From positions 128,001 to 192,000 of the forward strand of contig CBDAOY010000008.1 in NCBI GenBank assembly GCA_965198225.1: a DNA stretch of 64,000 nt. The letters run 5' to 3'. The stretch comes from Terriglobia bacterium (GTDB lineage: Bacteria > Acidobacteriota > Terriglobia > 20CM-2-55-15). Each line of letters begins with the position of its first letter. The first letter of the stretch is position 1. Below are positions 30,522 to 33,047 of the stretch, piece by piece. The position numbers were made by a program, and so were the translations under genes. The notes under the pieces were generated by a model. That model had not been told where the DNA came from. It did not search any database and saw only the letters and a program-made list of their open reading frames with translations.

Positions 30522-30625
30522 GTGTAGGTGCGGTCTATGACCGCACGTTCTTCGAATGGCGACGATGTGCGCTCATAGAGCGCACCTACACCCCATCCTG
30601 ATGTCCGGCATAGACCGCACCTACA
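30522..30625. repeat. REP doublet plus half copy
   Basis: Doublet at 30522-30591 and a partial CATAGACCGCACCTACA at 30609-30625. Confidence 0.85.
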
Positions 30626-30695
30626 ATTTCCTGAAAACTCTCGCCTTCCGGGGGGAGCAACAACGGCTCGTGAGAAATGCGGGCTATGAGGTCCG

Positions 30696-33047
30696 TCAGC
30701 GCATGGATTCAGCCGAGAGCCGGACCGAGCAGTAGTGCGTGCCTGGCAGCACGCGTTTCCGGCGGGTTAAAGTCCCGCTCGGCCCGAGGCCACGGGTCGA
30801 TATCCAACAAGTGGGGGTAATGCCTCACTGGCCGAAGTGTAGACAGGTAGTGCAGATGCCTAAACGGGCACGAAGGCGAAAGCCGGATACGGCCAAGGCA
30901 AAGCTGGAGCCAGCTACGGAAACTTTGGAGGGCAGGGCGCCCACCGCGAGGTGGGGTCTGAAGGGCATGAGGAGAACCACCGGGTCGTAATCGACGGGAG
31001 CCATCCCGAGGATGAACCGGTCGGCCAAAGATGGGGAATGGTCGAGCCCGCACTATTGGGGCGAAGGCGCATTGGTTCCACCCCATCGCACCAAGGTGTG
31101 TGCGGGCGACACGGTGGAGAAGAGACGCGAGTGACCCAGGGAGGCCTGGTATCGTCCGGGCGGAAGGTAAGGTCGAGATGATGTGGCACCCGCAGACGAA
31201 AGGGCGGGCAACCGAGAAGACAAACATCGACCTAGAGCCCTGCGCGGTAGGTGCGGATATAAGCGAGAGCGAAATTCCGGCCATCAGGAATCGGATCGGG
31301 GAATAGTGCGTGCCTGGCAGCACGCGTTTCCGGCGGGTTAAAGTCCCGCTCGGCCCGAGGCCACGGGTCGATATCCAACAAGTGGGGGTAATGCCTTGGC
31401 CGAAGTGTAGACAGGTAGTGCAGATGCCTAAACGGGCACGAAGGCGAAAGCCGGATACGAGGCAAAGCTGGAGCCAGCTACGGAAACTTTGGAGGGCAGG
31501 GCGCCCACCCGAGTCTGAAGGGCATGAGGAGAACCACCGGGTCGTAATCGACGGGAGCCATCCCGAGGATGACCGGTCGGCCGTCGAGCCCGCTATTGGG
31601 GCGCGCATTGGATCGCACCAAGGTGTGTGCGGGCGACGGTGGAGAAGAGACGCGAGTGACCCGGCCTGGTATCGTCCGGGCGGAAGGTAAGGTCGAGATG
31701 ATGGCACCCGCAGACGAAAGGGCGGGCAACCGGATCGACCTAGAGCCCTGCGCGGTAGGTGCGGATATAAGCGAGAGGAAATTCCGGCCGACGCGGTGTC
31801 AGGAATCGGATCGGGGAATAGTACTCAGGAACGAGACGGCAAACATCCAAAAGGCCCGTTGGAGGGGGAAGTCCCCGTACTCGTGAATGTGCGAGCGATG
31901 GGAAACGCGGAGATATCGTGGAACTTGGATAGTTCCCTTCGCGGTACGAACGAAGCCGAGCCACACAGCGGCAACTGAGGAAAGCGCTTGCGGGAAAACC
32001 GCACGAGCCGTTTGATTGAGCGGACGGTGGAAGGGCCGCGGGACCACTTTCGACTCTACACTCAGGAACGAGACGGCAAACATAAGGTCTCGGATCGTGC
32101 TTCGAGCAGCGGCGCTGGCGGGTCCAAAAGGCCCGTTGGAGGGGGAAGTCCCCGTACTCAGTCGTGAATGTGCGAGCGATGGGAAACGCGGAGATATCGT
32201 GGAATTGGATAGTTCCCTTAGCGAAAGACCCAAACGCGGTACGAACGAAGCCGCCACCTGCCGCCACACAGCGAATTCCGAACGAGGAGCAACTGAGGAA
32301 AGCGGCTTGCGGGAAAACCGCACGAGCCGTTTGATTGAGCGGACGGTGGAAGGGCCGATCGGCCCGACCACTTTCGACTCTACAGGCGAGCCCGATGACC
32401 GAGATGAGCCCGGCGAGGAGCGTCAGGCTATAGGCACCTGCCAGCCCGATGACGCCAAGCGACAGCATTCCGGCGATCAGGAACGATGGGGCGGAGTAGA
32501 GGAAGTGACTGGACCAGATCTCAATCATCGACAGTCCTTCGGTCAACGCGACGATCAGTGACACGGAGATCGAGTTACAAAGGAAATACACGAACGACGC
32601 GAACACGGTGGCCGTCATCTGGGCCGACATCGTTGCCAGCGGGAGCGCACCGGAGAGCAGGTGGTACGTCCACCACGTCAGTAGCACGGTCATTGCGATC
32701 ATCCCCGTATTGAAAACCCACTGGTGCAGGACGAGTCGTTTCGATGGCAGAAACGTTTGAACCGTGACTCCGAAAACCGCCACGAGTACGGCAACTGCCG
32801 GACCCTCGCTGATGACTGCAAGAAGGACCACTGCGGTCAGGAAGGAAATTGAACTGTTCCGGAAGAGGTTCACTTTCGACCGGGCGCCGAGGACGGCGAC
32901 CGTCAGCAGCAAGAGCACCCGGATCGGCGTGATGGTCGGTTGGAGCGCCAGCGAGAAGAGCCCCGCTGCAATTCCGACGGCGCCGAACAGGCCAATCGTC
33001 CACTTGGCCGCCAGCGAAAGCTCTTGAAATCGGGTTTGGGAGTACAC
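30696..33047 (-). CDS. Multi-TM membrane sensor-like protein (MASE9-like), interrupted near its 3' end by an antisense group II twintron
   Basis: Joining 33047-32384 to 30736-30696 gives 234 aa ending ...VIGLAYYCSVRLSAESMR*. The tail of ORF-track ORF 31740..33047 is antisense intron sequence. Confidence 0.7.
30737..32383 (+). mobile_element. ORF-less group II intron, outer copy (895 nt without the inner copy)
   Basis: 5' end GCGTG; EBS1 ACTATT (31052-31057); DIII-like CGGGGAATAGT|AC...GAAGTCCCCG; D5 AAGCGGCTTGCGGGAAAACCGCACGAGCCGTTT; D6 ending TTTCGACTCTAC. About 140 nt of DIV with no RT ORF. Confidence 0.9.
31308..32059 (+). mobile_element. ORF-less group II intron, inner nested copy (752 nt)
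   Basis: A second GCGTGCCTGGCAGCACG start and a second D5/D6 ending CGACTCTAC; colinear with the outer copy but with many short deletions. Confidence 0.88.

Follow-up and report, generated by a model that had tools for sequence, protein, structure and literature searches.

Layout of the Locus

The stretch of DNA analysed here, called the window below, is 64,000 nt long (G000:C8:128001-192000) and comes from a Terriglobia bacterium; unqualified coordinates refer to it. It carries a group II intron without an open reading frame (ORF), which holds a second copy of itself and interrupts a gene encoding a protein with a MASE9-type membrane domain (Table 1). We read this element as a nested, ORF-less mobile group II intron that starts with GCGUG, was inserted by homing guided by exon-binding site 1 (EBS1) with reverse transcriptase (RT) supplied in trans, and has the domain-III loops of group II introns as its usual home; we give this reading a probability of about 0.9.

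The nesting can be read from the repeat layout. The 570-nt stretch that begins at 30737 recurs at 31308, and the sequence at 32060 continues as the second copy does past 31826. The inner copy lies wholly inside the outer one and un-nested copies read uninterrupted across the site, which makes the element a twintron; with the match to domains V and VI given below, this bears out the first-pass annotation, which had described one group II intron copy nested in another. Differences between inner and outer copy are nearly all gaps, with a mean column identity of 93% in the 5′ parts and 82% in the 3′ parts. The outer 5′ segment misses 8 nt near 31282 relative to other copies. The inner copy has suffered numerous small deletions; as 2 nt are missing from its EBS1 loop and 1 nt from its domain V, it is probably dead. 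The outer copy is probably a fossil, since it is interrupted by this damaged copy.

The decay of the inner copy follows an odd pattern: compared with its sisters it has lost about 25 pieces of 1-40 nt but has hardly any substitutions, and both strands of one helix are lost (corresponding to the 31030s and 31080s of the outer copy). This could stem from template jumps of the RT, or from assembly or polishing errors in a nested repeat. The deletion-rich bins of the inner copy (31392-31727 and 31896-31979) had zero cover in all four sequencing runs, which is no evidence either way between real deletions and assembly errors.

TABLE 1. Features of the twintron, its target sites and its host gene (window coordinates).
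Feature	Position	Strand	Remarks
Host gene, last 14 codons and stop	30696..30736	-	
5′ exon/target of outer copy	30721..30736	+	Intron-binding site 1 (IBS1) = 30731-30736 (AGTAGT); final GT = exon
ORF-less group II intron (outer copy and guest)	30737-32383	+	1647 nt, starts GC, ends AC
Outer intron, 5′ segment (GCGUG end, domain I, up to 5′ side of domain-III internal loop)	30737..31307	+	
5′ end GCGUG (30737-41); possible 5′-terminal hairpin, bases 1-6 with 13-18	30737..30754	+	
CCGGTC, EBS2 candidate of the first-pass annotation	31017..31022	+	Not established
EBS1-bearing arm, closed by GAUGGGG/CCCCAUC	31030..31091	+	3 covarying pairs (RNAalifold)
EBS1 ACUAUU, apical loop of this arm	31052..31057	+	
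Own homing site of the intron family, within outer copy	31292..31307	+	IBS1 = 31302-31307 (AATAGT)
Inner nested copy, in domain-III region of outer copy	31308..32059	+	752 nt vs ~904 nt in intact copies
3′ part of the outer intron (from the 3′ side of domain III through an ORF-less domain IV to domains V and VI; end CUAC)	32060..32383	+	
Domains V and VI of outer copy	32298..32383	+	AGC triad, 2-nt bulge, bulged A 7 nt from 3′ end
Host gene, first 221 codons, MASE9-type membrane domain	32384..33047	-	32384 = +1 A of 3′ exon

Identity of the Intron and Its Encoded Protein

The Rfam model for domains V-VI (RF00029) aligns end to end at 32298-32383 (model positions 1-77, E-value 3.9e-5) with a score of 36.9 bits, below its gathering score, and stops exactly at 32383. 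On the inner copy, where domain V has lost one base, it matches 31980-32059 with 28.4 bits. RF02001 gives a weak match at 30940-31047 (24.5 bits). Measured against the consensus GUGYG...AY, the 3′ terminus AC fits and the 5′ terminus GCGUG agrees at four of five positions, with C at position 2. Comparison of empty with occupied sites shows that insertion was precise and left no target-site duplication.

The window copies are ORF-less, and the maturase ORF of domain IV is present only in sister copies. Two of these (C6:343788-345941 and C5:501714-503866) encode a protein with RVT_1 (2.8e-33) and GIIM (1.5e-19) domains. It scores 390 bits on TIGR04416 (cut-off 300), a family with 42 matches in the whole genome G000, 22 of them above the cut-off. 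No endonuclease domain was matched in the protein encoded by the family, and its nearest solved structures are IIC reverse transcriptases (PDB 7uim, 1.2e-64; 6ar1, 5e-63).

Subgroup IIC introns insert just past a terminator-like hairpin, use an EBS1 of 3-4 bp and have a small ribozyme. An assignment to this subgroup was rejected: EBS1 pairs over 6 bp, the ribozyme measures about 905 nt, insertion is into coding DNA or into loops of other introns, and only the protein is nearest to IIC. In subgroup IIA the delta base adjoining EBS1 pairs with position +1. Here the base 5′ of EBS1 is C (31051), yet +1 is A at all sites, and IIA-type delta pairing with +1 is therefore excluded. A minimum-free-energy fold of a whole 904-nt copy gave no believable six-domain map, and such folds were used for local hairpins only.

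The 5′ Boundary of the Intron

The intron begins after the exon dinucleotide GT; it thus starts with GCGUG and ends with CUAC, the DNA element running from GCGTG to CTCTAC. Empty and occupied sites can be compared directly (↓ marks the insertion point). One host repeat occurs in eight copies of full identity, seven of them empty and reading ...CATAGT↓AGCCCGG and one occupied exactly between T and A. The family's own site, ...GGGGAATAGT↓ACTCAGG, is found in 14 empty and 4 occupied copies in G000. For the window locus itself, two contigs of the public run X2 (library type not on record) join 30736 straight to 32384 with the GT kept. This joint skips 1647 nt that start with GC and end with AC, has 200 nt on its shorter side and contains no ambiguous bases. 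An intron-free allele, which the first-pass annotation had named as a check, therefore exists and retains GT. Run X1 shows the occupied form, in a contig spanning 32362-32800.

The host gene gives the same answer. When the element is removed at 30736/32384, the host protein ends with an AYYCS motif followed by nine more residues, and intron-free homologues (50-58% identity; G002, G008, G005) have the same motif at that place, as expected from the C-terminus that had been predicted; a boundary two bases upstream would alter the first Tyr of the motif. The intron lies antisense to this gene and hence cannot be spliced from its mRNA, so that the outer copy truncates or extends the host gene instead.

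Eight distant relatives (proteins 53-80% identical) can be aligned along the full length of the intron; six have ...TAG(T/G)↓GTGTG and two ↓GTGCG, against TAGT↓GCGTG here. Their metagenome-assembled genomes are titled Desulfobacterales, delta proteobacterium, Terriglobales, Alphaproteobacteria, Geminicoccaceae and Nitrospinota. Because they carry GTGTG or GTGCG at the aligned place, GCGUG is GUGYG with U changed to C at position 2, and the GTGCG that starts two bases further upstream is a coincidence of exon GU and intron GCG. The dinucleotide before the element is GT in 34 of 38 copies and AT, GC, GC or GG in the other four; since it varies, it behaves as exon bases. Position +1 is A after all 21 of the 3′ ends in G000 and after the 14 of 14 3′ ends of relatives that have downstream sequence. 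Empty sites, the X2 allele, host homologues and relatives thus all agree on the boundary that the first-pass annotation had placed after GT. Its label 'non-canonical' was overstated; the start at GCGUG holds and departs from GUGYG at position 2 only.

All 30 close family copies in G000, G013, G023 and G024 begin with GCGTG. They occupy many different sites in the four genomes, which would imply, rather than demonstrate, that the form with C at position 2 is mobile. Position 2 of the 5′ motif can be C in copies that have evidently continued to spread. For annotation this matters, as a pipeline anchored on GUGYG would shift both junctions by two bases and restore the host gene wrongly. Our search of the open-access literature for GCGUG with group II introns found nothing relevant.

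A further deviation from GUGYG in the clade is found at locus L122 (G426), where a 72%-identical relative starts with GUACG (A at position 3) after CATAGT, in a D1-D4-3-type host. Intron bases 1-6 may form a hairpin with bases 13-18 (30737-30754; loci L096-L107), with 88.9% of cells paired among 9 distinct sequences and two compensatory changes. Here C2 would pair with G17, where relatives have U2-A17; L107 has U2.G17 and L106 has C4-G15. The statistics are weak, the observed count being reached by 23 of 500 shuffles, and four relatives favour a helix of 6-11 with 21-26.

Target Recognition by EBS1

The 16-nt 5′ exons of the outer and inner copy (30721-30736 and 31292-31307) are identical at 12 of 16 positions, and the first base of the 3′ exon is A in both cases (32384 and 32060); the coordinates and strings of the first-pass annotation are correct for both sites. 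A degenerate 16-mer of the two exons matches the 6.4-Mb genome 19 times, where roughly 0.05 matches are expected at random. Eighteen are domain-III sites of the family itself (4 occupied, 14 empty), and the only match outside the family's own site is the one in the window host gene, which is occupied. The proposed scan for targets and their occupancy thus yielded 5 occupied and 14 empty sites, and since all 19 matches are family sites or the window site, the shared 16-nt target is more than chance.

Within the first 560 nt of the intron, ACTATT (31052-31057) is the only hexamer with at least 46 of 54 pairs to the -6..-1 hexamers of nine distinct sites; it scores 48. EBS1 forms at least five of six standard pairs with the copy's own 5′ exon in 38 of 38 copies and all six in 30. 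In 35 of the 38, the sixth base of EBS1 is paired with target position -6, and the two covary. Loops with G at this base give C-G in 18 copies, U.G in one and a mismatch in one (target G), and loops with U give A-U in 6, G.U in 10 and a mismatch in two, both at one site whose copies look recombinant. The ACUAUG loop is carried by all distant relatives, by G024 and by five G000 copies, with C at target position -6 in 18 of 20, and the ACUAUU loop by 18 copies in G000, G013 and G023. Four self-nested inner copies in G000 all have the U-type loop, a perfect match to the intron's own AAUAGU. Among 11 sequences, three pairs covary in the helix of the EBS1 arm (GAUGGGG/CCCCAUC) and one in the loop-closing stem. 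As the unique best-pairing hexamer, with covariation at -6 and in a covarying arm, the loop ACTATT can be accepted as the EBS1 that the first-pass annotation had taken it for. It offers a natural case of retargeting by a single base of EBS1, in which G pairs with C at -6 and U with A or G.

The domain-III loops of the introns themselves also vary. The window family and L096/L097 have AAUAGUA in this loop, and L099, L102, L103, L105 and L106 have CGAGGUA, CGCGGUA or CACGGUA instead. As AAUAGUA is replaced there, these latter introns offer no target to their own EBS1.

Copies of the Family and Their Sites

Searches of G000 by BLAST with the two halves of the element gave 25 and 26 matches, and a motif scan found 20 5′ ends and 21 3′ ends. 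Most copies are ORF-less and about 904-922 nt long; two copies of about 2.15 kb have an open frame at a constant position in the 3′ half, and a third such copy is frameshifted. Fourteen of the 20 5′ ends lie 91-291 nt downstream, on the same strand, of the Rfam D1-D4 matches of other introns (RF02005, RF01999, RF02001). The other six comprise four in the family's own site, one in the window host gene and one unclear case (C5:3834). In one measured host the RT-family match begins 226 nt after the 3′ end of the guest.

Local folds were computed for eight sites. Four place the site on the 5′ side of an internal loop (A)AUAGU↓A, with a basal stem before it and GAAG on the 3′ side, and the other four minimum-energy folds differ. 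We take the RUAGUA/GAAG loop to be the conserved domain-III internal loop of well-studied introns. The self-site belongs to a stem/internal-loop/stem element that follows domain I and precedes the ORF-bearing domain IV, a position that fits domain III. The location that had been given for the target in domain III is thus consistent with this element, and the name of the domain is drawn partly from known introns.

Outside G000 the picture is mixed. For six of the eight distant relatives there is a same-strand D1-D4 match upstream; one has a domain V-VI match 145 nt downstream and one has none. One of two copies in G426 also has an upstream match. None of the nine loci scanned in G024 (L072, L079, L084, L089, L091, L093, L094, L095, L104) is near a group II match at gathering score, so that the family in this genome sits mostly outside recognisable introns. 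Since these loci show no nearby intron match and the window site is ectopic, an obligate intron-homing habit is disfavoured. For locus L123, no position could be assigned to the 5′ end. When DNA from the whole phylum was searched, 1 of 400 other genomes proved to have relatives; with two candidates scored per genome, this figure shows neither rarity nor absence.

Several copies in G000 are chimeric or rearranged (C4:150750-152235, C8:902508-903484, C4:97368-98438 and C5:3834-4942). One has its 5′ flank from one host type and its 3′ flank from a different one; others contain internally duplicated stretches of about 50 and 167 nt, or a guest without the outer 5′ half. This suggests recombination between copies or template switching. 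In two other genera of the bacterial family, loci L070, L071 and L078 (G013:C24, G023:C2) are 98% identical to the window copies, occupy the same host-intron site and are again self-nested, which suggests recent horizontal spread of a host-plus-guest unit. In run X15, recorded as an RNA library of a sponge metagenome, contigs join the intron to the flanks of two host introns; the intron element, or carried-over DNA in this library, is thus present in the sponge habitat.

Alternative Explanations

The boundary could be drawn differently, with the intron starting at the canonical-looking GTGCG (30735) and the 3′ end shifted to match. This start would match GUGYG perfectly, and GT does precede the element in 34 of 38 copies, but the empty sites retain GT, the X2 allele joins 30736 to 32384 unambiguously, and the Tyr-Tyr reading required by the host homologues is given only by the 30736/32384 junction; the relatives, moreover, read TAGT↓GTGYG, and GT is absent from the remaining four copies. 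We therefore regard a GTGCG start as hardly credible. Almost as improbable is that the 12/16 identity of the two 5′ exons reflects common descent, the host-gene site being a relic of the domain III of another intron and not a chosen target. That 14 of 20 5′ ends in G000 do lie in other introns speaks for such an origin. Around the host-gene site, however, there is no group II match at gathering score, the site falls within a conserved coding C-terminus shared with intron-free homologues, and an empty allele of the host gene exists. Choice of both sites by EBS1 therefore remains our reading of this identity.

A less clear-cut question is whether target choice involves a second pairing. The first-pass annotation named CCGGTC (31017-31022) as EBS2, which would pair with target positions -14..-9 (GAYCGR) and help to choose sites. 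The hexamer lies in the stretch directly 5′ of the EBS1 arm, where a stem-less EBS2 of the IIB type presumably sits, and it forms six of six pairs at one window site, five of six at the other, and 42 of 54 when nine sites are taken together. The portions of PMC4649490 that we draw on give a stem-less EBS2 as one feature of subgroup IIB. Target positions -14 and -13 (GA) are also nearly constant in the sites of G000 and the relatives, but this is equally explained if the hosts are introns that share a conserved linker. Two other hexamers score higher (50 of 54), a block of 22 nt around 31017-22 is identical here and in nine relatives despite targets that differ at -12..-7, RNAalifold puts part of it in helices, and four G024 sites, read by hand, have no match in the -14..-9 register. 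A role of CCGGUC as EBS2 is thus not established and seems to us rather unlikely. The two higher-scoring hexamers were rejected as well: GGUCUG near 30957 is part of the UCUGAAGG core, which the RF02001 model also carries, and UUGGUU near 31072 lies in or beside the covarying helix of the EBS1 arm.

Several points weigh against the overall reading of a mobile intron that homes by EBS1. Inside the element all Rfam families stay below their gathering scores (RF00029 36.9 vs 40; RF02001 24.5 vs 32), and at that level the window has 0 matches. Three copies break the pairing at -6, and the 38 copies are not independent; as many are duplicated host-plus-intron units, there were fewer events than the counts suggest. 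Neither spliced RNA nor a lariat was observed, and the RNA run X15 consists of contigs only, which cannot show splicing; its joint of 31307 to 32060 (one contig, 24 nt on the shorter side) is not evidence of splicing and is explicable by un-nested copies. Finally, the window twintron itself is probably inactive, with an outer copy that has an 8-nt deletion and is interrupted, and an inner copy damaged in the EBS1 loop and domain V.

Comparison With Known Intron-in-Intron Systems

Twintrons and homing of introns into introns are already known; what differs here is the target in the domain-III loop and the C at position 2. In the open-access literature we found no report of a lineage that homes into the domain-III loop of other introns.

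One close parallel is provided by TeI3/TeI4 of Thermosynechococcus elongatus. According to the parts of that report available to us (Mohr et al. 2010, PMC2882425), a single ORF deletion gave rise to compact introns without an ORF, which are mobilised in trans and are more numerous than those with one, EBS/IBS pairing at the sites is good, and some copies form twintrons at a conserved site in another group II intron. The likeness to the window family thus covers ORF-less proliferation, good EBS/IBS pairing, twintrons and also, in TeI3/TeI4, one member with a deviant 5′ base. In contrast, TeI3/TeI4 guests are there described as entering domain IV between the first and second ATG of the ORF, whereas the window family uses a ribozyme loop upstream of the ORF (PMC2882425). 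Their hosts are related introns of the same family, while hosts of the window family match three Rfam D1-D4 families, besides the family itself, and their mobility was shown by experiment, whereas that of the window family is inferred (PMC2882425).

A second parallel is the endonuclease-less lineage of B.th.I3, M.a.I5, UA.I3 and P.l.I2, which, as far as the consulted parts of PMC2504315 and PMC4424553 describe it, occurs in distant taxa and homes into the RT active-site motif of the ORFs of other introns. There too the IBS1/IBS2 target is a conserved motif of other introns, which leads to nested introns and was called a 'perpetual homing site' (PMC2504315, same limitation). The B.th.I3 lineage targets YADD codons in these excerpts and the window family an RNA motif, RUAGU↓A, so the two are set apart here by target and not by sequence comparison. 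Membership of this RT-motif-homing lineage (M.a.I5, P.l.I2, B.th.I3) was considered and rejected, as the sites lie 91-291 nt past the D1-D4 match and, in the one measured host, 226 nt before the RT-family match.

In Trichodesmium, T.e.I7/I8 form a bacterial twintron with sequential splicing shown, its inner intron also lying within a ribozyme domain of the outer one (PMC4649490, in the passages at hand). It occupies one locus, within a protein-coding gene, and combines two unrelated introns, the guest lying in domain I, while the window twintron is known from sequence alone (PMC4649490). C.te.I1 and fungal rRNA introns are reported, in the consulted part of PMC4424553, to splice 1-33 nt upstream of the real GUGYG owing to an altered EBS1. 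As here, an apparent GUGYG is not at the real junction; unlike there, the junction in the window is at the homologous normal position and base 2 alone is changed (PMC4424553).

Proposed Mechanism

We propose that the window element, which measures about 905 nt in its intact form and has no ORF, derives from a mobile group II intron encoding a protein without an endonuclease domain. What is observed is precise insertion at EBS1-complementary sites with A at +1, the coexistence of ORF-less and ORF-carrying forms with one breakpoint, and a protein of the RT/maturase family. The outer copy would have inserted between T30736 and A32384 by reverse splicing into DNA, antisense to the membrane-protein gene, and a second copy would later have homed into the domain-III loop of the first at 31307↓31308, giving the twintron. 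Targets may be chosen mainly by the 6-bp pairing of EBS1 (ACUAUU or ACUAUG) with IBS1 (NRUAGU), together with A at +1. The RT/maturase of the two ORF-carrying copies would splice and mobilise the ORF-less copies in trans. For lack of an endonuclease, primers at the replication fork would be used, as is reported for endonuclease-less introns in the consulted part of PMC4424553. The family would normally live in other group II introns, in the RUAGU↓A internal loop that follows shortly after domain I, and the window host-gene site would be an ectopic look-alike of this motif.

The boundary question is settled and ordinary; the intron-in-intron habit is more interesting. We consider it somewhat better than an even bet that the family belongs to an endonuclease-less lineage of intron parasites (in records from Acidobacteriota, Desulfobacterota, Alphaproteobacteria and Nitrospinota) whose EBS1 fits the domain-III motif RUAGU↓A and whose hosts span at least four ribozyme families. 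Here, a single G-to-U change in EBS1 would have enabled self-nesting (AAUAGU), and the change of U2 to C, matched by A17 to G, hints at a hairpin of bases 1-6 with 13-18 at some stage. If so, this would be a second kind of intron-in-intron specialist, aimed at a conserved RNA motif of the ribozyme and not at reverse-transcriptase codons. Such elements would supply themselves with ever more homing sites, and splicing of the host intron would depend on prior removal of the guest.

Neighbouring Repeats

A cluster of palindromic units resembling repetitive extragenic palindromes occupies 30522-30626, with 25-nt arms that are 92% complementary. The 14-nt cores of these units occur 287-432 times in the genome, and their read depth is 20-100x that of the flanks.

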